Positions 12,854 through 62,330 of a DNA stretch of 64,000 nucleotides are shown piece by piece. The DNA lies in the NCBI GenBank assembly GCA_027320085.1, contig DAHVLZ010000037.1, forward strand, positions 1 through 64,000. Direction: 5' to 3'. This DNA is from Pseudomonadota bacterium (lineage in GTDB: Bacteria > Pseudomonadota > Gammaproteobacteria > JAKAQQ01). The first letter of the stretch is position 1. Every line of letters starts with the position of its first letter. The position numbers were made by a program, and so were the translations under genes. A model generated the notes under the pieces. That model saw nothing but the letters and a program-made list of their open reading frames with translations, had not been told where the DNA came from and did no database searches.

Positions 12854-14605
12854 CTAGTGCACGCCCCAACCCTGCCGGAAATGGCCCTGTCGCCCGAAAG
12901 CCCGGGCTTCGCGCCGGGCATAGCGCGACCAGGTGGCCCGGTTGCCCACGACGATCGGGCGCAAGAGGATGACCAGTTCGGTTTTCACCGTTTGCTGCAA
13001 CCGCTGCTTGAAAAGGTTGCCAAGAAGGGGAATCTGGCCGAGGATGGGTGTCTCGTAATTTTCATTCTCGATTTCGTTCTTCATGAGACCGCCAATGACG
13101 ATCACCTGGCCAGAGTGGGCACGCACAACCGTATCGGATTCGCGTACCTGACTGAAAGCCAGTGGCAGGGTGCTTGACTGGCCAGAGACCGTGAACGAGG
13201 TGATCTGGGAGGTGACCTTGCTCACGGTGGGATGGATTTCCAGAATGACCGTACCATGGGAGGTGATTTCCGGCGTGACGTCCAGGGAGATGCCGGAAAA
13301 GAACGGGGTCAGGTTGACGTTATTTGCGGAACTCACGGCGGTTCCTACAAAGGTGTTGCTGTTCACTCCCGTGACAAAGTACTGGTCATTGCCGACTTTG
13401 ATGACCGCCTGCTGATTGTTGAGGGTGGCGACCCGCGGGCTCGAGAGGACATGGACCTGCCCTTGATGCTGGAGCAGCTCGATGAAACCGGTGAAGTCGC
13501 CCAAGTTGAGGGCCATGGCGAAGGTTCCGCCAAAAGCGGTGGTCGGAAAGCTGGACAGGGGGGCGGTGTTGGGCGCTAGGGTCAACGATTGGCCGGCCAG
13601 CGTGGAAGTTCCCTGGTTGAACAGGTTCTGGCCACTAATCTGTCCACCGAGGATGGAATTTCCCGTACCAGGCTGGCCGAGCGCGGCCCAGTTGATTCCG
13701 CTCTGGAAACCCTTGTTGAGGGTGACTTCGAGGATCTTGGCCTCAATCACCACTTCCCGGTCCAGACTCCCCTGGATCTGGCGGAGATAATCCGCGGTCA
13801 GGTGGATTTCCGTGGGTGTGCCGCGGACGAGCACGACACCGGAGGTTGGGCTTACGATCACCTCGTGACCGGGCGTTTGGGTCACGATGGCCAAAAGTGC
13901 CTTCTGGATGTGTTTCCAGAAGGCGGATTTGAACTTGGTTTCAATACTGGTACTGGCCTGCTGCCCGGATGGAAGATAGAGCTGCTGGTTCTGGTTGTTA
14001 TTCATGTTTCCGTACATTCCCCCTCCGCCGTACAACCCCCCATAGGCACCGACGCCTCCGTACCCGTTGTTCTGGGGCACATTGGTCGTTTCCCCGGAGG
14101 TGATGAGTGTCCGCGTGACGCCCTTGCGGCTGACGTCTAGGTAGTTGACGTGAAAGATTCGCGTGATGAGCCCCTTGGGCAGGACAAGGTAGCCGCCCGG
14201 GATACGGTGGTAACGGAAGCCGTACGTTGCCCGCACAATGGCAAACACCTCGGGGACCGTCACCTGCTTGAGTTCAAGAGTGATCCGTCCAGTCACCTTG
14301 GGTGCCACGACGACGTTGTAGGGGGTATCTTTTACGAGTCCGAGGAAGAAGGGCCGCGCCGGTTCGTTATGGACTGACAGATTGAAGCGCTCCTCGGCAA
14401 CCCGTCCGATACCCGTCTTGACGGAAGGGAGGAAAGTTGCGGCCAGGCTGGGCGGTGGAGGCAGCGGGCGGAGCGGAGCCATCGGGGTCACCCGCCCGGC
14501 ATGCCGCAGCAGCGATGCTGGACTTGAATGGGGGCGGGTTGTGGCGCATCCGGATAGAGCGGCTGCGCAGGCGAGGGCCGACAGCAAGCGGGAACGTCGA
14601 TTCAT
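12854..14605 (-). CDS. mshL: MSHA secretin MshL (lipoprotein)
   Basis: Lipobox LSGC; VIEAKILEVTL, LSSPRVATLNNQQAVIKVG, PFFSGISLDVTP, IGGLM, PLLGNLF, ELVILLRP. Confidence 0.93.
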   Translation of the reverse strand: MNRRSRLLSALACAAALSGCATTRPHSSPASLLRHAGRVTPMAPLRPLPPPPSLAATFLPSVKTGIGRVAEERFNLSVHNEPARPFFLGLVKDTPYNVVVAPKVTGRITLELKQVTVPEVFAIVRATYGFRYHRIPGGYLVLPKGLITRIFHVNYLDVSRKGVTRTLITSGETTNVPQNNGYGGVGAYGGLYGGGGMYGNMNNNQNQQLYLPSGQQASTSIETKFKSAFWKHIQKALLAIVTQTPGHEVIVSPTSGVVLVRGTPTEIHLTADYLRQIQGSLDREVVIEAKILEVTLNKGFQSGINWAALGQPGTGNSILGGQISGQNLFNQGTSTLAGQSLTLAPNTAPLSSFPTTAFGGTFAMALNLGDFTGFIELLQHQGQVHVLSSPRVATLNNQQAVIKVGNDQYFVTGVNSNTFVGTAVSSANNVNLTPFFSGISLDVTPEITSHGTVILEIHPTVSKVTSQITSFTVSGQSSTLPLAFSQVRESDTVVRAHSGQVIVIGGLMKNEIENENYETPILGQIPLLGNLFKQRLQQTVKTELVILLRPIVVGNRATWSRYARREARAFGRQGHFRQGWGVH

Positions 14606-14973
14606 CGCGGTGATCTCGCAGAAGAACGAAGGAGGGCGGGGTATAGGGTAAGGACCATGATGCCTCCAGTGCCGAGGCGTAAAACAACCCGGCTGGGCTC
14701 GATTCGAAGAACGGTTGCGTCTCCCAAGTGATCCCCGAGCCCCAGCCTCCGACCGTTAATTGTGGCAATCCTCCGGTCCGGAGCGATCAGGACGGAGGTC
14801 AGCCGATAGGGGACAGGGGTATTTCGTTTGGGGACGGCGGCGAACGGGGGAGGACGCATTGGATCAGGGATCCGGCTAGCCTTGGCGAGCTGAATGGACA
14901 GGGTTCCCAAGACACCAGCCAGGAAAAGGAGTGGGAAGACGATGGGTTTATGAGCGGAGGAGTGCACGGTCAA
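14602..14973 (-). CDS. mshK: MSHA biogenesis protein MshK
   Basis: Signal-like N-terminus, DPMRPP motif, A.ING; located between mshJ and mshL. Confidence 0.8.
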   Translation of the reverse strand: MTVHSSAHKPIVFPLLFLAGVLGTLSIQLAKASRIPDPMRPPPFAAVPKRNTPVPYRLTSVLIAPDRRIATINGRRLGLGDHLGDATVLRIEPSRVVLRLGTGGIMVLTLYPALLRSSARSPR

Positions 14974-15604
14974 GACTCAGTGTGTGAACGACGAGGGTCG
15001 CCCGGTTCTCGGGATAGTGTGTCGCCTTGAGATCGAAGCGATCCCAGTAGAAATGCCACGGCAACCGGTTAAGCGCGTGGAGATAGTCCAGGGTCTCGCG
15101 AAAATCTCCCTTGAAGACCAGCTCAAGCGGATGGCTGAACAGGTTGACGCCATTCGCCTGGGCCCCAGGATCGTTGAGCAGTGCACGGGGAGGAAGATTC
15201 TGGGCGCGGATGAGCACAAGTCCACGCTGCCTGGCCAGGATAGCCTCGAGCAGCCGGCTCATCACCTGGGGGCTGACCAGTCCTACTGTTCTGGCGTGCA
15301 GGTTTCGGTCGACGGCTCGTATCCTGGATAGTGTTCTCGTGATCTTTTGGCGGAGGATCAAGTTGGGATGAAGTACCGCCGTCGCAGCCAACCGGCTCGC
15401 TGCTTGGCCCAAGGCATGGATCCGTCTGGCGGTTGCCGTAGCCTGCCGACGCTCGTGGCTCATGGCGAGGCCAACCGGCGTGAGCAGGATCGCCTGGCCC
15501 AGGTAATACAGGATGGCGGCACCGGTGAGGAGCACGAGGACACGCTCCCGGAGACTCAACTGGTCGATCCGGTGTGCAATTTTTCTGACCGTTTCGCGGA
15601 TCAC
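14948..15604 (-). CDS. mshJ: MSHA biogenesis protein MshJ (PilO-like)
   Basis: LSLRER + TM + coiled coil; LVSPQ.M; G.F...LDYL..L..LPW.FYW; TLSL. Confidence 0.85.
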   Translation of the reverse strand: MIRETVRKIAHRIDQLSLRERVLVLLTGAAILYYLGQAILLTPVGLAMSHERRQATATARRIHALGQAASRLAATAVLHPNLILRQKITRTLSRIRAVDRNLHARTVGLVSPQVMSRLLEAILARQRGLVLIRAQNLPPRALLNDPGAQANGVNLFSHPLELVFKGDFRETLDYLHALNRLPWHFYWDRFDLKATHYPENRATLVVHTLSLDRALLRS

Positions 15605-16212
15605 GGCGTTTTTCGCTTCCCGGCAATCCGGGTGGTGGAGGCGCGGAAATCGAGGTAAGGCGCACCGTGCGGGGCCCTGCTGATCCGGAGGCTCTCGAAG
15701 CTGAGAGTGAGCCGGGTTTTGAGCAGGTGGGCAAAATAGCGTGGCACAAGAGTCGCGGCCATCGCGTGGCCCTTGAGAGTCAGGGACTGGCCCCCCTCGC
15801 GGATCTCGATCGCGTCAAACCAGAGCCCGGGCATTACCGCTTTGGACAGCGTGACGAGCTCGCCGGAAAATCCCCGAAGATTGCCGTATCGGGGCTCCTT
15901 GAGCAGGGTTAGGGCGGTCTCTTTCTCACGGAGCAGGGCTTTCAGATGGTTGAAACGGGCCACCAGGAGGGGGCTTTTTCGGTGCAACCGGGCGATTTCG
16001 GTGAGGGTTGCAAGCCGCTGGGTAAGGACCAACTCCTCGCTGCGTAACCTCGACAGGGTGGAATCGGCGGAGACCAGGAGAATCCGTTCGTAGCCATAAA
16101 CGAGCAAGATGCCTGCGATAAGCACGAGCAGGATCTTGCCGATGGCCGACCCTCCGAGCGGAATCTGCTGCTTGTGGAACAGGGGTTGGTAGAGATTGAT
16201 TTCCTGTGCCAT
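15601..16212 (-). CDS. MSHA biogenesis protein MshI2 (PilN-like)
   Basis: QEINLY motif, TM, coiled coil, GLW..I, LKGHA, VP.Y. Confidence 0.8.
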   Translation of the reverse strand: MAQEINLYQPLFHKQQIPLGGSAIGKILLVLIAGILLVYGYERILLVSADSTLSRLRSEELVLTQRLATLTEIARLHRKSPLLVARFNHLKALLREKETALTLLKEPRYGNLRGFSGELVTLSKAVMPGLWFDAIEIREGGQSLTLKGHAMAATLVPRYFAHLLKTRLTLSFESLRISRAPHGAPYLDFRASTTRIAGKRKTP

Positions 16213-16213
16213 G

Positions 16214-17137
16214 TCAGGACTCCGGCCCGAGTCTCAGGGCGGCGCCGATCGCGAGCAGACCACGGGCCTGCTCTTCGATTGCCAGTGGTCGGACGCAATC
16301 GAGATGCTGGTTGAGATCACAGTACCGGACCGCGAGGCCGGTATATTCCGTGAGTGACTCGGACAAGTTGCTAGGTGCCCCCTGAGTGGGCAGGATCAGG
16401 ACAGTCTGGGCCAGGGCCAGGTGAAAGTGGCGGTCGCAGTAATCCATCGAACGCTGAATCTCGAGAGCCAACTGCTCCGTTGTGGCAGGAGCCAGCTGGA
16501 GGGTCTCCGCCCCAAAATCGAGGCGACGGGCCAGGTAGAGGGTATGCTGCCGGGTGACTACCACCAACCCCCTTTGGGATTCGAGGTGCAGGGTGACGAG
16601 CCCCTGCCGGTCCTCCGGCGCTAGTGCCGAAAGGTTCCGGATGCACATTTCGGGGATGTCGATGACCGTGAGAGCCGCACCCGTTTCCGCGACGCTGTCC
16701 ACCAGGCTGCGGATGGCGTCGGCCCGTGCGGCGATGCAATAAAGGCTGGCTCGACCACCTGCGGTCTGGCTGTCGGCTGGCAGCTCAAAAAGGTCGATCA
16801 GAGCGTCATCGACATGGAAGTCGATCAGGTCCTTGATCTTCCAGCGCAGAGCGCTGCGCAACTCCTGCGGAGGGACATCCGGTGCGTCGACCAGGAGGAT
16901 CTTGTAGGCCTCCCAAGGAGTCACTAGGGAAAGGCGGTCGTGCGCACGGGTGCCCTCTTGGATGAAATGGGCAAGGTTCCGGGCAGTCTCACCGTCGGTC
17001 GGCACTTCGCGGTAGCGTTCGAGACGGGGACGTGATCCGCGATTGCGGGTGATTTGGGCCAAGACTAGGGTTTCGCCAAATGGTACGACCCCCGTCAGGC
17101 TTGAAAGGGCGGGTGTGGTTTTACGCAGGTTCCACAT
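16214..17137 (-). CDS. MSHA biogenesis protein MshI1 (PilM-like)
   Basis: P.VP..EL..ALRWKIKDLIDF, IDIPEM..RNL, LALEIQRSMDY, LAIGAALR. Confidence 0.82.
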   Translation of the reverse strand: MWNLRKTTPALSSLTGVVPFGETLVLAQITRNRGSRPRLERYREVPTDGETARNLAHFIQEGTRAHDRLSLVTPWEAYKILLVDAPDVPPQELRSALRWKIKDLIDFHVDDALIDLFELPADSQTAGGRASLYCIAARADAIRSLVDSVAETGAALTVIDIPEMCIRNLSALAPEDRQGLVTLHLESQRGLVVVTRQHTLYLARRLDFGAETLQLAPATTEQLALEIQRSMDYCDRHFHLALAQTVLILPTQGAPSNLSESLTEYTGLAVRYCDLNQHLDCVRPLAIEEQARGLLAIGAALRLGPES

Positions 17138-31684: not shown

Positions 31685-31713
31685 TTGACGATGAGGGATC
31701 CGCATCCTAAAAT
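31685..31713 (+). promoter_or_regulatory. Sigma70 promoter for the riboswitch-Ehr operon
   Basis: TTGACG (31685-31690), 17-nt spacer, TAAAAT (31708-31713); predicted start site lies just 5' of the aptamer. Confidence 0.85.
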
Positions 31714-31722
31714 ATTCCTGAC

Positions 31723-31770
31723 GGTGATGGAGTTCGCCGAAAAAAACGCCATCGGGCTAATAACTCCTGT
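31723..31770 (+). ncRNA. Fluoride riboswitch (crcB motif)
   Basis: GGTGATGGAGTTCGCC-GAAAAAAAC-GCCATCGGGC-TAATAACTCCT. P1 GGTGA/TCGCC, pseudoknot GGAGTT/AACTCC, P2 GCC/GGC, with the conserved GATGG and TAATR segments. Confidence 0.93.
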
Positions 31771-31804
31771 GTGAATCCAAGCATTTGAGGGTACCCCTCG
31801 GAGC

Positions 31805-32761
31805 ATGCGCGGGATCATGACAGGCGACGCCGTTTTCCAGCAGGTTTGCCAGGTGTTGGCCGTGCTGTGCTTGGCGCCTCTCCTCCACGGATTCATTGTG
31901 ACCTGCCGCGAGAAAATCGCCCGTGGGAAAGGACCGCCGATCCTTCAACCCTACCGGGATCTTTACAAGCTGTTCCACAAGGAACAGCTTGTTCCGGAAA
32001 CCGCCTCGTTTATCTTCTGGATTGCCCCAATCGTGGCATTCACGGCCGTACTCACGGTCCCTCTCCTAATTCCCGTACTCACCAACTATCCCCTGCCATT
32101 TTCGGATATGGGCGACATATTGGGGGGCGGGCTCATCCTGGCCTTGGCCGGCTTCTTCATCGGGCTCGCGGGCCTGGACAGTAGCCATCCGTACGGGGGG
32201 CTGGGCTCGAGCCGAGAAGCGATGCTTGGGATTCTCGCCGAACCCACGTTGATCGTGGTGTTCATCGGCATCACCCTGCTTGACCGGTCAATGCTGCCCT
32301 TTGTCGTGAACCATCTGCTTGTGGCCGAGCCATCCGTCTACTGGAGTCCGGGCCACCTCCTCTTGGTTGCCGCCTTTTTCATCCTGTTGACTGTTGAGAC
32401 CGAGCACCTGCCCATTCATTCAGACACCCATCATGAGATCTACATGATCGGGGAGGCTCGTCTCCTCGAATATTCTGGTCCGCTCCTGGGGCTCCTCAAG
32501 TGGTCCTCTTGGATGAAGAGGGCCATCCTCTACACCATCTTCGTCAATGTCCTAACTCTGCCTTGGGGCCTTTCTGTTCGGGGATCGGTTCCGGGATTAC
32601 TTGAGGCGACGGGAATTCTGCTCTCGAAGTGGGCACTCGTTGCCCTTTTGCTTGTGATGATCGATTCCCTCCAGTCCCGATTGCGCTTCTACCGCTACCA
32701 GGAGCCTCTGGCCCTCTCGTTCCTTCTTGCGATTCTGGCTGTGATCGCCCACCAGCTTTAG
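31805..32761 (+). CDS. Ehr/hydrogenase-4 membrane subunit, HyfC/HycD (NuoH family)
   Basis: GPPILQPYRDLYKLFHKE, GGLGSSREAM..LAEP, ET..LP, LEYSGP.L, SRLR. Start is 31805 or 31817. Confidence 0.9.
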   Translation: MRGIMTGDAVFQQVCQVLAVLCLAPLLHGFIVTCREKIARGKGPPILQPYRDLYKLFHKEQLVPETASFIFWIAPIVAFTAVLTVPLLIPVLTNYPLPFSDMGDILGGGLILALAGFFIGLAGLDSSHPYGGLGSSREAMLGILAEPTLIVVFIGITLLDRSMLPFVVNHLLVAEPSVYWSPGHLLLVAAFFILLTVETEHLPIHSDTHHEIYMIGEARLLEYSGPLLGLLKWSSWMKRAILYTIFVNVLTLPWGLSVRGSVPGLLEATGILLSKWALVALLLVMIDSLQSRLRFYRYQEPLALSFLLAILAVIAHQL

Positions 32762-32768
32762 GACGCCG

Positions 32769-33458
32769 GTGCCGACTCTCTCCCCCACCGGCTTGAACCA
32801 AGCGATCCTGGACCTCATCGCCATGTGTGTGCTTCTTCTCACCTTCGTGATGCTGGGTTCGCACTGGATCCGGAACCATATCCTTGCGTTCGCAGCCCAA
32901 TCCTGGGTGTTGGCCTTGCTATCTGCCTTCATCGGTTTTTCCGGCCACTATCCGGCACTGCTGGTCATTGCGGGACTGACCTTGCTCTTCCGCGGGCTGA
33001 TACTTCCCCATCTCCTGGTCCGTATCCTAGACCGGGCCCATCTCAACCGGGAGTTTGCCCCGGTGGTCCAGTCGGCCATGAGTGTCGTCATGGGTGCATT
33101 GTGCGTTCTTCTGGCCTACGGGGCAGCTCTCCGTCTGGGCCAGGCTGTAACCGGGCAGAGCCCAGTCACGCCTGTCATGCGAATTGGGCTGACCAGCCTC
33201 CTCGCGGTTGTTCTGATCGGGTTCCTGATGCTGGTCCTGCGACGGGAGGCGGTGAGCCACCTCTTAGGGCTCCTCGTGATCGAAAATGGCATTTTCCTGG
33301 GGTCACTGATCCTCATGCCGGGACTCCCACTGCTCCTCGAGTTTGTGGTGTTGTTCGATCTCCTGCTTATCGTGGTCGCTCTCGGCATGTTCGTTCGATA
33401 CCTCCGGGCTGAAATCGGTTCGACCGACAGCCGGGCGCTGGACCGGCTCGTGGGATGA
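32769..33458 (+). CDS. Ehr/hydrogenase-4 subunit, HyfE-like (NuoK-related)
   Basis: Multi-TM; FAAQS..L, GL.VIENGIFL, PLLLE..VLFD, C-terminal L..L.G. Confidence 0.88.
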   Translation: MPTLSPTGLNQAILDLIAMCVLLLTFVMLGSHWIRNHILAFAAQSWVLALLSAFIGFSGHYPALLVIAGLTLLFRGLILPHLLVRILDRAHLNREFAPVVQSAMSVVMGALCVLLAYGAALRLGQAVTGQSPVTPVMRIGLTSLLAVVLIGFLMLVLRREAVSHLLGLLVIENGIFLGSLILMPGLPLLLEFVVLFDLLLIVVALGMFVRYLRAEIGSTDSRALDRLVG

Positions 33459-33462
33459 GCCC

Positions 33463-34920
33463 ATGATCTGGGCCTCACTCGGGATCCTGCTCACGGTCAC
33501 GGCCCTGGCCTCGGCCCTTTGCTGGATCGTGCGCCAGCCCCGCATTGCCGAGATCGTCAACCTCGCCGCAGCCACGATCGATTGTCTTCTTGTGTGCTGG
33601 CTGTTGGTGGTGACGCCGTCAGGTGGTGTGCGGGGGGTAGGGAACTATCTCCGACTCGGTCCGTTGGGGCTGTGGGTGATGTTGTGCACTGCTATCGTCT
33701 ATTTTCTGGCTTCGCTTCATGCAATCGGATACATGCGACGAATGCGCAAGGAGAAGGAGCGACTGAATCGCTTCTATGGGATGTTCGCGGTCTTTGCGCT
33801 GACTCTTTTCCTGGCGCCGGTCGAGAACAACCCAGGGCTCTTCTGGATCGCGATCGAGCTCACCACCATCGCAAGCGCTTTCCTGGTTGCATTCCAGCGG
33901 GCACCTGAAACCATCGAAGCTGCCTGGAAGTATGTCGTCATCGCAACGGCCGGCCTGTCGCTGGCACTCCTTGGAACGATTCTCTTCTACTGGGCTGGCA
34001 CCTTTACGTTGGGTCCCTCCTATAACATGACCTGGAGCCGCTTCGCTGCCATTGCCCCCTTGGCCAATCCCGGCTTGGTTTTTTTCGCCTTCCTGCTCGT
34101 GATGGTTGGCTTTGGGACCAAGGTCGGCCTCGTGCCCATGCATACCTGGCTCCCAGACGCGCACAGCGAGGCCCCCGCCCCGGTTTCGGCGATGCTCTCG
34201 GGGGCGCTCTTGAACTGCGCGATGCTAGGCATTGTGCGTTTTCTCGAGATCCTGAAGAGTACGCCTGAACACGCACTGGCCCAAACCGCTCTCGTCATGA
34301 TGGGCGCCTTGAGCCTTCTCGTCGCGGCCCTGTTCATTGTTCGCCAGCGGCTGATCAAGCGCCTGGCCGCCTATTCGAGCATTGAGCACATGGGAATCAT
34401 GGCCATGGGGTTCGGGTTCGGCGGGGCTCTGGGCGTGATGGGTGCGCTCTACCAGATGCTTAATCACTCAGTGACCAAATCGGCGGTTTTTTTCGGGGCC
34501 GGAAGCACGATGCGCGCATACCAGAGTAAGCAGATCGCGGGTATCCGGCGCGTGCTGGATGCCTTTCCGGTGGTAGGGTTGCTTTGGCTCGCGTCCGCCC
34601 TTGCGATTACGGGAGCTCCTCCCTTCGGCATGTTCTGGGGCGAGATCACACTGCTCCAGGGTGGCATGGCGAGTGGGAACCGCTGGGCCGTGGTTTGGAC
34701 GGTCGTCATCCTGATCGTGGTTTTCATTGGCTTTTTGAGCCACTTCCGCAGGATGTATTTCGGCCGGCCACCGACCAGACCACCCGAGGCCGCCTTCCAT
34801 TGGACTGAATTAGCTTCGCTCGCGCTGGCCGTGGCAGCCGCGCTGGGACTCGGCCTCTGGTGGCCCTCTTCCGTTTGGGCCTATCTCCGCGCGATCGCAC
34901 ACCATCTGGGATCCACCTGA
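33463..34920 (+). CDS. Ehr/hydrogenase-4 antiporter-like subunit, HyfF-like
   Basis: WIAIELTTIASAFLV, EAAWKY, GFGTKVGLVPMHTWLPDAHSEAP.PVSAMLSG, KRL.AYSSIEHMG, NHSVTK, GAPPFG.F..E. Confidence 0.92.
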   Translation: MIWASLGILLTVTALASALCWIVRQPRIAEIVNLAAATIDCLLVCWLLVVTPSGGVRGVGNYLRLGPLGLWVMLCTAIVYFLASLHAIGYMRRMRKEKERLNRFYGMFAVFALTLFLAPVENNPGLFWIAIELTTIASAFLVAFQRAPETIEAAWKYVVIATAGLSLALLGTILFYWAGTFTLGPSYNMTWSRFAAIAPLANPGLVFFAFLLVMVGFGTKVGLVPMHTWLPDAHSEAPAPVSAMLSGALLNCAMLGIVRFLEILKSTPEHALAQTALVMMGALSLLVAALFIVRQRLIKRLAAYSSIEHMGIMAMGFGFGGALGVMGALYQMLNHSVTKSAVFFGAGSTMRAYQSKQIAGIRRVLDAFPVVGLLWLASALAITGAPPFGMFWGEITLLQGGMASGNRWAVVWTVVILIVVFIGFLSHFRRMYFGRPPTRPPEAAFHWTELASLALAVAAALGLGLWWPSSVWAYLRAIAHHLGST

Positions 34921-36428
34921 TGCGGCCCTGCACGAGCCGGGTCATCAGGGCTGAGGAACTCCCGAAGCTGCTCGACGAGTTTCTGCCAGCCGCCGCTTGT
35001 CCGGACCCGCATCGGCGGCTCCGCATGGCTTATGCTCGCAAGGCGGGTGAAACCGATCTTGAAGTCCTCTACTACCTGAGCCTAGGAAAAGGTCGCACCG
35101 ATCTCTTCCTGCGCGTTTCCCCCGAGCGGAATGTTATGCCCAGCGTGGCGAACCGATTCCCCTCGCTATCATGGTACGAGCGCGAAATGCATGACCTCTT
35201 CGGCATCGACTTTGCCGGACACCCCGAACTTCATCCGCTCGTCCTGCATGAGGGGGCCACCACATTGCGGCCGCCCCTGCTCGGGCAGGCCGGGGCTCCA
35301 ATCCATTACCGGACATCACCACCCTCGGTCCCGACGATGCACGCAACCGAGATCCAACGCCTCCCGTTCGGTCCCGTTCGTGCGGATATCGTCGAGTCGG
35401 CCCAATTTCTTTTCTACTACATCGGTGAGGGGATTCTCCACTTTCACCAGCGGCTTTTCTACAAGCATCGCGGCATGGAAAAGCGTTTCGAAGGCGTCTC
35501 ACCCATGGCCGGGATCATCCTGGCTGAACGGGTTTCCGGCACAGATTCAGTGGCGCATGCCTTGGCGTTCTGTCAGGCCTGCGAGATGGCCCTGGGTCTT
35601 TTGCCCCCCCCGCGGGCACTTGGCATCAGGACCATCCTCGCGGAACTTGAACGACTGGCAAACCACCTCCATTATTTTGCAGAACTGGCGCGGATGACGA
35701 CTCTGCGCGTAGCAGCTGCACAAGGAGCATGGCTCGAGGAGCAAGTTCGGCAGATCAATGGGGCTCTGACCGGAAGCCGTTTTCTGCGTGGCTTCTTGGG
35801 CGTTGGTGGACTTCGGCGGGATCTCGAACCTTCTGGTCTGGCCAGCCGTCTGACCGACCTCGAGCCCGGGATTTCGGATTTTCTCGACAAACTTGCGGAC
35901 ACTCGGAGTTATCTTGACCGCCTGATCGGTACTGGCCGGCTCTCAACCGATGTGGCCATGGACCAGGGGGCTACCGGTCCGGTCGAGCGAGCGAGTGGGC
36001 TCGACCGGGATCTCCGCCGAGATCGGCCATACGGTTCTTATGGAATGCTCGAGTTCAGGGTTCCCCAGGAGTCCGAAGGCGATGCCCTGGCCCGGGCCCA
36101 AGTTCGCCGCGCCGAAGTGACCGAGTCTCTCGCCCTGGTCCGTGAGTCCCTCGCGCGTCTCGAGTCGGGCCCGATCACCACGGATCAGCCGGATGAAGGA
36201 CCGGATCCGGCGGGAGAGGGATTGGGGGCGGTCGAGGGTACCCGGGGCGGGCTTTACTACGCGGTCCACTTCGACCCAGACGGGAAATGCTTGCTGCGCG
36301 TCAAGATCAAGGAACCCTCATTTTCCAACTGGCGTGTTTTCCCATTCACTGTGAAGGATACCAATCTCATGGACTACGCCATCAACGAGGCCAGCTTCGG
36401 CCTCTCGATCGCTGGCGCTGACCGCTAG
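34920..36428 (+). CDS. Ehr large subunit (HyfG/HycE, NuoC+NuoD fold) lacking Ni-Fe cysteines
   Basis: NuoC-like WYEREMHDLFGI.F.GHP; YKHRGMEK; AERVSGTDSVAH in place of RxCGxC; ELERLANH; C-terminus DYAINEASFGLSIAGADR in place of DPCxxC. Confidence 0.92.
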   Translation: MRPCTSRVIRAEELPKLLDEFLPAAACPDPHRRLRMAYARKAGETDLEVLYYLSLGKGRTDLFLRVSPERNVMPSVANRFPSLSWYEREMHDLFGIDFAGHPELHPLVLHEGATTLRPPLLGQAGAPIHYRTSPPSVPTMHATEIQRLPFGPVRADIVESAQFLFYYIGEGILHFHQRLFYKHRGMEKRFEGVSPMAGIILAERVSGTDSVAHALAFCQACEMALGLLPPPRALGIRTILAELERLANHLHYFAELARMTTLRVAAAQGAWLEEQVRQINGALTGSRFLRGFLGVGGLRRDLEPSGLASRLTDLEPGISDFLDKLADTRSYLDRLIGTGRLSTDVAMDQGATGPVERASGLDRDLRRDRPYGSYGMLEFRVPQESEGDALARAQVRRAEVTESLALVRESLARLESGPITTDQPDEGPDPAGEGLGAVEGTRGGLYYAVHFDPDGKCLLRVKIKEPSFSNWRVFPFTVKDTNLMDYAINEASFGLSIAGADR

Positions 36429-36438
36429 GGGGAATACG

Positions 36439-37242
36439 ATGGTCAACTGGGCATGGTTTGGATTGAGTCGGGGGGGGCTGACCACCGGCTGGCCGGAAGG
36501 GGCAGGAGGGCATGGCCAGGAGGGTGTCTTGGGTATGCCCCGGCTCCATCTTGAGCGCTGTGCACCCACATGTCGGGACTGTATTTCGGTCTGCCCGTCC
36601 GGTGCGATCACCGGAAGCTTGGAAGAACCGGTGACGCTCGACTATGGACGCTGCGTGGTCTGCCAGCGCTGTACCGAGGTATGCCCGACCGGAGCCCTCG
36701 AAAAAACCACTGATTGGGCCTTTGGCGTTCGTACGCGGGAGGCACTCCTCGCAGGAGGGGGGCGAACGGGTTCTGGAAATGCTGAGACCCTCCCCTCCAA
36801 CCGTGTGCCTCGCGGATTCGGGAGGAGTCTTCACATCCGTCATGTCGATGCCGGATCTTGTAATGGCTGTGAATCTGAGCTCGAGGCACTCCTCAATCCC
36901 TTCTACAACCTCCACCGCTTGGGCATATTCTTTACCGCTTCTCCCCGCTCTGCTGATCTATTGCTTGTGACGGGCCCAGTCACGATGGCCATGAAGGAGC
37001 CACTCCTTGAAACCTATCGGGCAATGCCCGAACCCCGGTTTGTCATGGCGACGGGGACCTGCGCAACTGGTGGCGGGATTGCCGGTGGTGGGTATAGCTG
37101 CCACCAGGGACTCGAGGGAATTCTTCCAGTCGACCTCTGGCTACCGGGTTGCCCCCCAAACCCCGCAGCCATCATGGACGCTCTCTTGGTGCTCTTGGGA
37201 AGGCGATCCGAACGATGTGCTCTGCCGGAGCGTGCCGGATGA
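36439..37242 (+). CDS. Ehr small subunit (HyfI/NuoB family) fused to an N-terminal 2x[4Fe-4S] ferredoxin
   Basis: CAPTCRDCISVCP and CVVCQRCTEVCP, then DAGSCNGCESE, SPRSADLLLVTGPVT, GTCA, PGCPP. Confidence 0.92.
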   Translation: MVNWAWFGLSRGGLTTGWPEGAGGHGQEGVLGMPRLHLERCAPTCRDCISVCPSGAITGSLEEPVTLDYGRCVVCQRCTEVCPTGALEKTTDWAFGVRTREALLAGGGRTGSGNAETLPSNRVPRGFGRSLHIRHVDAGSCNGCESELEALLNPFYNLHRLGIFFTASPRSADLLLVTGPVTMAMKEPLLETYRAMPEPRFVMATGTCATGGGIAGGGYSCHQGLEGILPVDLWLPGCPPNPAAIMDALLVLLGRRSERCALPERAG

Positions 37243-39224
37243 ATCCACTCGGGGGTTTCCTCGCCGCTGCTCTTCTTTGGACCAGTGCTGTGTTGGCGGA
37301 TGTCGTGGGGCAGCCACGCTGGGCCCGCATGCTCATCTTGCTGGGGATTCTGATGGCTACGGCAGCAACCATCGCAGCCTTGCCTGGCAACTCGGGAACA
37401 GCGGTCATCGAGACCATGGGCAGACTGCCTCTTGACTGGCGAATGGAGGCAATGGCGCTCTGGCTTACTCTACCGGCCTGGTTGCCCGCCGGGTTCGCTG
37501 TCCTGCTCGGTCATCGCGAGGGCCGGAGGGGCTGGTTTTCCGGCTTCGCTTTGTGTCTGCTCGGAGCGCTTGGGGTTCTCGGCTTCCAGGATGGGCCGGC
37601 GTTCCTGGTGGCTTGGGAAGTGACGGGTTTTGGGGCAGCGATGATGTTGCTTTCAGAACGCAGTGATACCGCAGCCGGTCGGGCAACCTTCTTCATGTTG
37701 GCTCTCCTCGAAAGCGGAGCTATGGCCCTACTCCTCGCCATCCTCATGCTGGGCCCGGGATGGCGGTTTTCCGGCTATGGTACGGCTTGGGCCAGCTGGG
37801 GAGGCGCTGCCGGTTTTCTTCTGGCACTCCTTTGGCTTGTGGGTTGCGGCGCAAAACTGGGACTCCTGCCCTACTACGAATGGTATCCGGAGGCTTATGG
37901 TGCGGGCTCGGGTGCAAGTGGAGCATTATTCTCGGGTCTCCTCCTCAACGTTGCCTACTTTGTCCTGAGCCGGGCTTTGGTCGAGTGGCTCGGAATGACC
38001 CCTTGGCTCAGCAACCTTGGGATCGTGGTTCTAGTCGTAGGCATCCTGACGGCGGTCCTGACGGGTCTTTATGCTTTCCAGCAGGACGACTGGTTGCGTC
38101 TGCTAGCTTTCTCTTCGGCTGAAAACGCCGGCATCGCGGTCGCGGCTCTCGGGGCAGCCCTCATCTTCCGTGGCGCAGGTCATGATCATTTGGCCGCACT
38201 CGCCTGGATCGTGGGACTGATTCAGCTCATGGGGCATGCTCTCGCCAAGGGGACCCTCTTCTTCACAGCCCAGGCAGTGGCGAAGGACGGCACCGGATCG
38301 GCGCCCCTCCGACCGGGAGGGCTGCTCCACCGGGCCCCCGGAACGGTCGGTGCGGGCGCGCTTTGGGCCGCGCTCAGTCTCGCCGCGTTGCCACCAACGG
38401 TCGGGTTCGTGAGCGAGTGGTATCTCTTTCAGTGCTTGTTTCACGATTTCGTCTTGTCCACAGCTATCACCCGGATCACCCTTGCCCTGGCCGGTGCAGG
38501 ACTCGCGCTCACAGCCGCGATTTCGTTCGCCACCCTGGTTAAACTATTCGGTGTGGGATTGCTTGGCAAACCCAGTGCCGGTATCCGGGAGGAGATTCCA
38601 ACTGTATTTCGGGTTGCGATCTTGGTCTGCGGACTTTCGGTTCCCACTTTTGCTGTGAGCCTGGTCGTGTGGTTGCCTTGGCTCGGTCAGATTGCCCATC
38701 CGATCTTCGGATTTGCTCCTCACCTCGTGCAGGGTTGGCTGCTGGTCCCTCTGAGCCCGGGATTTGCCTTCATCTCCCCAGCCCTTTTGGTTATTGTCTG
38801 GCCGTTCCTCGCCCTGCTTCCCCTCTCTCTGTTTCTGATGAGCACCCATCGTTTCAAGGTCCGCAGTACCCACCTCTGGTGCGGTGGGGATCCGCTCGCG
38901 GCCCAGGCTGGCGCCACGACGGCTTTCGCCTTTTCGAACGCGCTGCGTGTCTTTTACAGCTTCGTTTACCGACCTCGAAACGTGGTCAGGCGGACCTTTG
39001 GCCAACAGCCCTATTTCGTGAAGGAAATCCGTTTTGACTACAGCCATGCCCCAGTCTTCGGGCCATTCTTGTTCAAGCCGCTCTCCAAGGCCGTTCGTTC
39101 TCTGGCCCACCAGCTGCGCTTCCTGCAGAACGGGAGGATCAGTGCCTACCTGGCTTATCTTGGCTTTGTCCTCCTCCTCATTTTTGCTTTTCTGCTGGTT
39201 TGGGGCCCGATTGGAATCCGCTAG
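37239..39224 (+). CDS. Ehr/hydrogenase-4 antiporter-like subunit, HyfB-like
   Basis: FLVAWEV, KLGLLP...W.PEAY, LLAFSSAENAG, HALAKG.LF, LPP..GFVSEW, VKLFG..LLG, WCGG, LQNG....YL.Y; ATGA overlap with the upstream gene. Confidence 0.9.
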   Translation: MNPLGGFLAAALLWTSAVLADVVGQPRWARMLILLGILMATAATIAALPGNSGTAVIETMGRLPLDWRMEAMALWLTLPAWLPAGFAVLLGHREGRRGWFSGFALCLLGALGVLGFQDGPAFLVAWEVTGFGAAMMLLSERSDTAAGRATFFMLALLESGAMALLLAILMLGPGWRFSGYGTAWASWGGAAGFLLALLWLVGCGAKLGLLPYYEWYPEAYGAGSGASGALFSGLLLNVAYFVLSRALVEWLGMTPWLSNLGIVVLVVGILTAVLTGLYAFQQDDWLRLLAFSSAENAGIAVAALGAALIFRGAGHDHLAALAWIVGLIQLMGHALAKGTLFFTAQAVAKDGTGSAPLRPGGLLHRAPGTVGAGALWAALSLAALPPTVGFVSEWYLFQCLFHDFVLSTAITRITLALAGAGLALTAAISFATLVKLFGVGLLGKPSAGIREEIPTVFRVAILVCGLSVPTFAVSLVVWLPWLGQIAHPIFGFAPHLVQGWLLVPLSPGFAFISPALLVIVWPFLALLPLSLFLMSTHRFKVRSTHLWCGGDPLAAQAGATTAFAFSNALRVFYSFVYRPRNVVRRTFGQQPYFVKEIRFDYSHAPVFGPFLFKPLSKAVRSLAHQLRFLQNGRISAYLAYLGFVLLLIFAFLLVWGPIGIR

Positions 39225-39529: not shown

Positions 39530-39603
39530 TGGGCCCAGCAGGACTCGAACCTGCGACCAATCGATTATGAGTCGACTGCTCTAACCAGCTGAGCTATAGG
39601 CCC
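39530..39603 (-). tRNA. tRNA-Ile2 (anticodon CAT, lysidine type)
   Basis: GGGCCTATAGCTCAGCTGGTTAGAGCAGTCGACTCATAATCGATTGGTCGCAGGTTCGAGTCCTGCTGGGCCCA; body resembles Ile2 rather than Met tRNAs; CCA not encoded. Confidence 0.9.
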
Positions 39604-59563: not shown

Positions 59564-59640
59564 TGGCGCGCCCGACAGGATTCGAACCTGTGACCCCAGC
59601 CTTCGGAGGGCTGTACTCTATCCAACTGAGCTACGGGCGC
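59564..59640 (-). tRNA. tRNA-Arg (CCG)
   Basis: GCGCCCGTAGCTCAGTTGGATAGAGTACAGCCCTCCGAAGGCTGGGGTCACAGGTTCGAATCCTGTCGGGCGCGCCA; CCA encoded. Confidence 0.96.
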
Positions 59641-62241: not shown

Positions 62242-62330
62242 TGGCGGAGAGGGTGGGATTCGAACCCACGTGGCGTTTCCGCCCATCCGATTTCGAGTCG
62301 GCGCCGTTATGACCGCTTCGGTACCTCTCC
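62242..62330 (-). tRNA. tRNA-Ser (CGA)
   Basis: GGAGAGGTACCGAAGCGGTCATAACGGCGCCGACTCGAAATCGGATGGGCGGAAACGCCACGTGGGTTCGAATCCCACCCTCTCCGCCA; long variable arm, CCA encoded. Confidence 0.95.

Follow-up and report, generated by a model that had tools for sequence, protein, structure and literature searches.

Analysis of a 64,000-nt stretch of genomic DNA (the window) from a mine-drainage bacterium of the Pseudomonadota, in which no known fluoride exporter was found, points to a fluoride-inducible, six-subunit complex of the energy-converting-hydrogenase-related (Ehr) type. The putative operon comprises six genes (g1 to g6) between positions 31817 and 39224 of the + strand, lies behind a fluoride riboswitch aptamer at 31714-31776, and appears to belong to an Ehr subfamily that is always led by such an aptamer. 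The predicted proteins have lost the ligands of the nickel-iron (NiFe) site, keep the cysteines of three iron-sulfur clusters and include two antiporter-like membrane subunits. We give about even chances to the reading that this complex is a fluoride-induced, redox-driven proton or cation pump which offsets the acid load brought in by hydrogen fluoride (HF).

The aptamer was assigned by an Rfam scan of the whole window, in which four matches passed the gathering thresholds, three of them tRNAs and the fourth the fluoride (crcB-motif) family RF01734. This match, at 31714-31776 on the + strand, scored 44.3 bits, where the gathering score is 34, and spans all 64 positions of the model, with an E-value of 5.1e-09 for the whole window and of 2.4e-11 locally. 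The original prediction of a complete crcB-class aptamer ahead of the operon is thereby borne out. The same element reaches 50.9 bits with R1, a covariance model built from 40 aptamers of the first sample of related loci described below, and it is the sole fluoride aptamer detected by Rfam in the 2.14-Mb genome. To our knowledge, every fluoride riboswitch known raises expression. The aptamer begins directly behind the -10 element of a promoter-like site (31685-31713, + strand; TTGACG, a 17-nt spacer and TAAAAT) and ends 40 nt ahead of the ATG at 31817, on the same strand as g1. This site had been described as a near-consensus sigma70 promoter. It matches the consensus at 10 of 12 positions, and its core (TTGAC and TA.AAT) is invariant in five aligned leaders, those of the window and of its four closest related loci, L003-L006, the flanks of which have diverged; on the other hand, a scan of the window returned two such sites where shuffled sequences gave 1.6, so that the count as such is not above chance. 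The ATG at 31817 is likewise invariant in the five leaders, whereas the ATG at 31805, the start of g1 in the list of open reading frames (ORFs), is not.

The leader between the aptamer and the start codon (31777-31816, + strand) contains no terminator-like site according to a site scan of the window. Since no terminator follows the aptamer, control in the clade of the window is probably translational, the start-codon region being freed on fluoride binding. In the minimum-energy fold of the window leader, the 3' tail of the aptamer pairs with the start-codon region, with a z-score of -1.0 that is not significant, and the tail-to-start duplex taken separately has a z-score of -0.9. When 66 loci were folded in this way, folds and duplexes joined the aptamer tail to the start region in the short-leader clades or to adjacent sequence in the long-leader clades; the tail-duplex z-scores averaged about -1.1 and a candidate start was overlapped in 22 of the 66.

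Pfam and NCBIfam searches support the anticipated set of HyfC-, HyfE-, HyfF-, HyfG-, ferredoxin-HyfI- and HyfB-like genes, which are all on the + strand and tightly coupled: three of their junctions are gaps (7, 4 and 10 nt) and two are overlaps (1 and 4 nt). The first gene, g1 (31817-32761, with an ORF readable from 31805), encodes a NuoH/HyfC-like membrane subunit (PF00146, E 9e-31). It is followed by g2 (32769-33458) for a small HyfE-like membrane subunit, to which the Pfam search gave no match and which was recognized through the hydrogenase 4 membrane subunit family NF008556 (E 3.4e-12, below the curated cut-off). The HyfF/NuoM-like antiporter-like subunit is encoded by g3 (33463-34920; PF00361, E 8.9e-53; hydrogenase 4 subunit F, E 5.6e-108, below the cut-off). 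The large subunit, g4 (34920-36428), is a fused NuoC-NuoD/HyfG-like protein without NiFe ligands, with matches to PF00329 and PF00346 and a weak one to PF00374. In g5 (36439-37242), a two-cluster ferredoxin domain (Fer4 families) is fused to a NuoB/HyfI-like small subunit (PF01058). The last gene of the operon, g6 (37239-39224), encodes a HyfB-like antiporter-like subunit (hydrogenase 4 subunit B, E 1.9e-81, below the cut-off). The operon thus carries two PF00361 genes, and the NCBIfam equivalog scores of all six genes are far below the curated cut-offs.

The loss of the nickel site is apparent from the large subunit. The closest solved relative of g4 is E. coli HycE (7z0s_E, E 2e-46), whose N-terminal NiFe cysteines (L1) align to Ser206 and Asp209 of g4; the last 17 residues of g4 contain no cysteine, and the L1 pair is absent in all 26 aligned members of the g4 family. 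These replacements agree with the nickel-less large subunit that had been proposed, and the genome context agrees with the accompanying claim that hyp maturation genes and formate dehydrogenase are lacking. Indeed, HypD (PF01924) was not found in the genome, a 96% complete metagenome-assembled genome (MAG) for which each absence reported here means 'not found'; the control search matched 4 of 14 reference genomes. The only PF00374 match in the genome is g4 itself, a weak one, and no formate-dehydrogenase-type gene was found on the contig of the window (C32), the one PF00384 (molybdopterin-family) protein of the genome being encoded on contig C30. The site does not match that of a standard complex I either: in an ungapped phmmer alignment of g4 with T. 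thermophilus Nqo4 (2fug_4, E 1.2e-40), His38 and Tyr87 of Nqo4, which we take to be the quinone ligands of complex I, are replaced by Val158 and Gly207. The former active-site pocket does not, for all that, appear to be decaying; Arg154, Asp156, Glu159, Glu203, Arg204 and Ser206 are invariant across phyla in the 26 members, together with the C-terminal motif.

The small subunit and the membrane subunits keep the residues expected of a redox-coupled complex. Twelve cysteines of g5 (41, 45, 48, 52, 72, 75, 78, 82, 141, 144, 208 and 238), every one of which is conserved in 95% or more of 79 sequences, account for two ferredoxin-type clusters and one NuoB-type cluster, and the electron path appears to be intact, as a conserved chain of three [4Fe-4S] sites. 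In g3, whose best solved relative is 6u8y_H (E 1e-33), a Glu (IELTT), a Lys (GTKVGL) and a further Glu (FWGE) are kept. The same Glu/Lys/Glu pattern is found in g6, with its motifs GAKLG, AWE and GFvsEW conserved in 72 sequences, while the Glu-rich motifs of g1 and the ENGIFLG motif of g2 are conserved in 68 and 69 sequences, respectively. Such charged residues are typical of the proton or cation channels in NuoL/M/N-type subunits. The conserved iron-sulfur cysteines and the antiporter-type charged residues would together fit the redox-coupled, ion-translocating machine envisaged in the original prediction. As for additional modules, no NuoEFG-type gene is present among the six operon genes according to Pfam and NCBIfam. 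Two of the subunits are related to MrpA/D, and the small Mrp subunits (MrpB, C, E, F and G) are absent from the family matches of the six genes, a result that does not cover remote similarity in g2.

To follow the pairing of aptamer and operon across relatives, a profile scan with one genome per species was used; it returned at least 592 confirmed stretches among 600 pattern matches, of which the best 80 loci were taken. Twelve of them hold less than 3.1 kb of upstream DNA and are therefore unscorable. All 68 scorable loci have an aptamer on the + strand, 3185-4477 nt ahead of the large-subunit gene. A second sample, seeded with a divergent member, comprised 79 loci, 56 of them on new contigs; 7 of these were too short, and the remaining 49 all carry an aptamer, 47 detected by R1 and 2 by Rfam only. 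Taken together, 117 of 117 scorable loci are aptamer-led, which answers the question of how often this Ehr subclade carries the element; when two unpublished genomes are left out, those of L036, which is unscorable, and of L081, which is among the 68, the figure is 116 of 116. Model R1 made 145 matches in the window and the 80 loci (1.45 Mb), the three weakest of which were dropped before counting, and it recovers 6 of 6 Rfam matches in close relatives; Rfam, for its part, was applied to seven diverse loci and recognized the lead aptamer in all of them. The order g1-g6 is exact in 61 of the 80 loci, and the other 19 represent shorter read-outs or duplicated or swapped ORF labels. Aptamers with a long P2 insert and a match of about 110 nt were seen in L286 (1963-2073) and L295 (1972-2080); they score 37.7 and 36.1 bits with Rfam and are missed by R1.

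A paralogous Ehr class served as a negative control. The genome of the window (G000) encodes a second nickel-free Ehr complex on contig C26 (locus L165: 5533-12681, - strand), which has the gene order B-C-E-F-L-S, a large subunit 36% identical to g4 and a NuoB-like small subunit of 170 aa without the ferredoxin domain. No fluoride aptamer was found at E 0.01 or better in any of the 81 sources of this class (80 loci and C26, 1.05 Mb in all). Since the paralogous class is devoid of aptamers in these 81 sources, the fluoride link appears to be a property of one Ehr subfamily and not of Ehr complexes generally.

The aptamer-led operons are often accompanied by further fluoride-related genes. Among the 68 loci with at least 500 nt beyond g6, crcB directly follows g6 on the same strand in 23, is located elsewhere in the locus in 13 and is not in the locus in 32; twelve further loci could not be scored for its position. 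In 11 of the 13 loci with crcB elsewhere, the gene precedes the operon and is read from the opposite strand. Two of these, L033 and L037, were traced, and there crcB follows an aptamer-led gene for a dynamin-like GTPase; the other opposite-strand loci may contain the same divergent GTPase-crcB operon. Hence, the statement that no exporter is present in the operon is true for the window and represents a feature of its lineage, not of the system as a whole. At the genome level, CrcB is encoded in 60 of 78 carriers of the complex (32/40 and 28/38 in two sets of genomes; 59/76 without the two unpublished genomes), and in 35 of 51 background genomes from other families of the same class. As CrcB is no rarer in carriers than in these other families, the complex appears to accompany Fluc (CrcB) and not to replace it generally, and the idea of a general Fluc replacement was rejected. 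As to Fluc, the survey that the original prediction had proposed has a divided outcome, with CrcB common among carriers and, as described below, nearly missing from the window's own family.

The other 73 aptamers in the loci lead genes for MutS-domain proteins, enolase, dynamin-family GTPases and cyclopropane-fatty-acid-synthase-like proteins, and further for HEAT-repeat proteins, a phosphoesterase, an MFS transporter, Usp, a pyrophosphatase and others. The Ehr region is often a fluoride island. In Acidobacteriaceae-type loci (L023-L025, L031-L033, L037, L042, L053, L054 and L065, at about 1.8-6.6 kb), one or two further aptamers are present divergently on the other strand and lead an enolase gene and a dynamin-family GTPase gene, forming a multi-riboswitch fluoride island. 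In a Thiomonas-like clade, the operon ends with crcB and, behind it, a DUF190 (PF02641) gene, as in L007 (14433-15173), L010 (14400-15155) and comparable loci.

The family of the window shows a different arrangement. The earlier claim that neither Fluc/CrcB nor CLC-F is encoded in the window extends to the whole 96% complete genome: CrcB was not found in either by a search with the PF02537 hidden Markov model or by tblastn (best E 0.34), and the single CLC protein of the genome, encoded on contig C6, carries GDGTD and GREGP and is devoid of the CLC-F signatures, which are GNNLI/GMGLI and GREGT/V (PMC11139923). Of the ten genomes of the family, five have a completeness of 94% or more; CrcB was found in one of the ten and the large subunit in nine. 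The sole genome with CrcB (G048, 65% complete) is also the sole one without the large subunit. In five genomes of the family (G000-G004), the CLC proteins carry G(D/H)G(T/S)D and GREGP and none has a CLC-F signature, and all seven Rfam fluoride aptamers lead Ehr-type operons. The absence of exporters from this family is not attributable to incompleteness, and the lineage appears to sense fluoride and to answer it only with an Ehr-type complex. The genomes are kin, so that the pattern reflects one or few evolutionary events, and a complementarity between CrcB and the complex is seen only inside this family. A possible reason lies in the acidic habitat. Acidophiles have an inside-positive membrane potential (PMC12831704) and export through Fluc depends on the electrical gradient (PMC11139923); since this is so, a Fluc channel would be useless or even harmful to them, which may explain why it is absent.

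We also considered the CLC protein of the genome as a hidden fluoride exporter and found no support for it. A search of 50 related CLC loci gave no convincing aptamer up to 4 kb away, the one match (17.4 bits) lying downstream of the gene, and the CLC loci of eight CrcB-less genomes have no aptamer within 1.5 kb on each side. In L005, whose g4 is 68% identical to that of the window, a gene for a 606-aa CLC (14486-16303) is found on the same strand about 160 nt after the Ehr operon; it encodes the same type as the CLC of the window's genome, with G(D/H)GTD, GREGP and a long C-terminal extension. Separately, in L110 (contig C78 of G002) and L114 (contig C18 of G004), a second aptamer leads a second, more divergent HyfC/HyfE-like operon, and some genomes of the family thus hold two fluoride-switched complexes.

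In the mechanism that we favour at about even odds, fluoride, as a Mg-F complex, would bind the aptamer and turn expression on, in keeping with the activating role described for fluoride riboswitches (PMC11139923). Electrons from a low-potential donor, for instance ferredoxin, would enter via the ferredoxin-like domain of g5 and pass along the three clusters, and their energy would drive protons (or Na+) outward across the membrane. Such pumping would remove the protons borne in by HF and sustain the proton-motive force that fluoride export requires, while in many relatives the co-expressed Fluc (CrcB) would remove the anion. This scheme is consistent with what is described for fluoride stress: entry of HF acidifies the cytoplasm, Na+/H+ antiporters are the second most common class of riboswitch-linked genes (both PMC11139923), and acidophiles are highly sensitive to fluoride at low pH (PMC12831704). 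Several observations weigh against it. No donor or input module was found in the operon, and the g4 pocket offers neither NiFe ligands nor equivalents of Nqo4 His38 and Tyr87. The statistics of the expression platform are weak, with z-scores of about -1. Finally, with CrcB in one of ten family genomes and no CLC-F signature in the five inspected, the anion is unaccounted for under a pure proton pump.

The lack of an input module and of a recognizable substrate site in g4 would be better accommodated by a secondary Mrp-like cation/proton antiporter, which would maintain pH and ion homeostasis under fluoride and whose peripheral arm would supply no energy, persisting as a relic with a structural or regulatory role. 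The two Mrp/Nuo-type antiporter-like subunits (PF00361) and the rank of Na+/H+ antiporters among riboswitch-linked genes (PMC11139923) point in the same direction. We nevertheless consider such an antiporter unlikely. A relic is hard to square with pocket residues that are invariant across phyla, the twelve iron-sulfur cysteines of g5 are maintained in nearly all sequences, and it is the paralogous class without the ferredoxin domain that is not linked to fluoride. The unaccounted anion, on the other hand, would be explained if the complex itself were a redox-driven exporter of fluoride or of fluoride species, needed where an inside-positive potential disables the passive Fluc, and this too we regard as a rather doubtful proposition. 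It gains most from the acid-mine-drainage family of the window, for which it would mean that Fluc was lost, that there is no CLC-F and that the complex expels fluoride or HF equivalents against the inside-positive potential; in this narrower form it is no more probable than in the general one. The near-absence of CrcB from the family with its single exception in the one genome without the large subunit, the CLC proteins of G000-G004 without CLC-F signatures, the exclusive use of the aptamers of these genomes for Ehr-type operons, the inside-positive potential of acidophiles (PMC12831704) set against the dependence of Fluc on an electrical gradient (PMC11139923), and the remodelled g4 pocket with its invariant Arg, Asp, Glu and Ser residues are all compatible with such an exporter. 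However, the coexistence with CrcB in most carriers and the position of crcB next in the operon in a third of the scorable loci argue against a general substitute, and the family pattern comes from kin. In addition, other transporters can moonlight in fluoride tolerance (bioRxiv 10.1101/2025.10.13.682028), and an unrecognised exporter may exist. The route through the antiporter-like subunits, by which the original prediction had let F- leave the cell, finds no sequence support, as the Lys/Glu pattern of these subunits is still that of proton or cation channels.

The published view of these genes is that of a genuine formate hydrogenlyase or hydrogenase-4. 'Formate hydrogen lyase' genes have been listed downstream of the crcB motif since Weinberg 2010 (PMC2864571), and a 2024 review counts them among the commonest riboswitch-linked enzymes and reads them as a move to fermentation under fluoride (PMC11139923); both sources confirm that this annotation is among the reported downstream genes. 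The homologues are annotated accordingly, as 'formate hydrogenlyase subunit 5' or 'Ni,Fe-hydrogenase III large subunit', and the closest solved structure is that of HycE, a subunit of the E. coli formate hydrogenlyase. For the aptamer-led subfamily, this reading is refuted at the sequence level by the absence of the NiFe cysteines, and we hold it to be scarcely credible. The L1 cysteines are replaced in every member aligned, by Ser and Asp in the window, and the C-terminus is cysteine-free; HypD and a second NiFe large subunit were not found in the genome, nor a formate-dehydrogenase-type gene on the contig, and the NCBIfam matches that suggest hydrogenase 4 all fall below their curated cut-offs.

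Comparison with known systems places the complex among the relatives of complex I. The Ehr group was reportedly defined by Marreiros in 2013. Ehr complexes are nickel-free relatives of group 4 hydrogenases of unknown function that are suspected to couple redox chemistry to charge translocation (PMC6349859). The operon of the window resembles them in encoding, together, a group-4-type large subunit without NiFe ligands and NuoB-like, NuoH-like and antiporter-like subunits, and its subfamily differs from other Ehr complexes in the gene order C-E-F-G-(H+I)-B, in the fusion of ferredoxin to the small subunit and in being always aptamer-led. The subunit types HyfB, C, E, F, G and H/I of E. coli Hyc (7Z0S) and Hyf all have counterparts in the window, where, in contrast to these enzymes, the NiFe cysteines are missing and no FdhF or Hyp genes were found. 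The Pyrococcus complexes MBS and MBH have a ferredoxin donor and a larger number of subunits, Mrp-type modules among them, and their acceptors are known. Chain 6u8y_H of MBS/Mbx (6U8Y) matches g3, and chains 6u8y_L and 6cfw_L (MBH, 6CFW) match g4. With complex I/NDH-1, the operon shares NuoB-, C-, D-, H-, I- and L/M/N-like modules, whereas it lacks NuoEFG and the residues corresponding to Nqo4 His38 and Tyr87. Fluc (CrcB) and CLC-F belong to the same riboswitch regulon and are unrelated proteins, neither of which was found in the window's genome.

The riboswitch-linked 'formate hydrogen lyase' genes of the literature (PMC2864571, PMC11139923) show the same pairing of RF01734 with Hyf/Hyc-annotated genes, and in the passages seen they are treated as formate hydrogenlyase, whereas the large subunit of the window has no NiFe ligands and no Hyp genes were found. 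In titles and abstract openings, no link between Ehr or other nickel-free complexes and fluoride was found apart from generic 'formate hydrogen lyase' statements; the supplements of Weinberg 2010 and Baker 2012 may list such operons. What is added here is the negative control with the paralogous class, the crcB counts and the exporter-less family.

The surroundings of the operon consist of priA, argS and a SPOR-domain gene upstream and, on the opposite strand downstream, a tRNA, hemH and a thiolase gene. This tRNA (39530-39603, - strand, 73.1 bits) lies 306 nt beyond the last stop codon of the operon; the two other tRNAs of the window are located at 59567-59640 (- strand, 68.2 bits) and 62245-62330 (- strand, 49.1 bits). 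In GC content the operon does not differ from its flanks, so that nothing points to a recent transfer.

The Ehr complexes, a widespread group related to complex I, have no known function, and the fluoride link makes the role of one subfamily testable. Conversely, the 'formate hydrogen lyase' genes that have stood unexplained in riboswitch gene lists since 2010 correspond to this nickel-free, iron-sulfur-containing Ehr subfamily. The function of an orphan complex and the presence of unexplained genes in a regulon thus become one question that is open to simple experiment, and cultured carriers exist in Thiomonas, Acidicapsa and Mesorhizobium, namely T. bhubaneswarensis DSM 18181 (L009), which has crcB in addition to the operon, A. 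dinghuensis 4GSKX (L047) and M. montanum (L070). Fluoride toxicity limits bioleaching by acidophiles (PMC12831704), some of which carry the complex and no known exporter. Should the complex itself turn out to export fluoride in these organisms, it would add to Fluc and CLC-F a third class of fluoride exporter, unrelated to either and with complex I as its scaffold.

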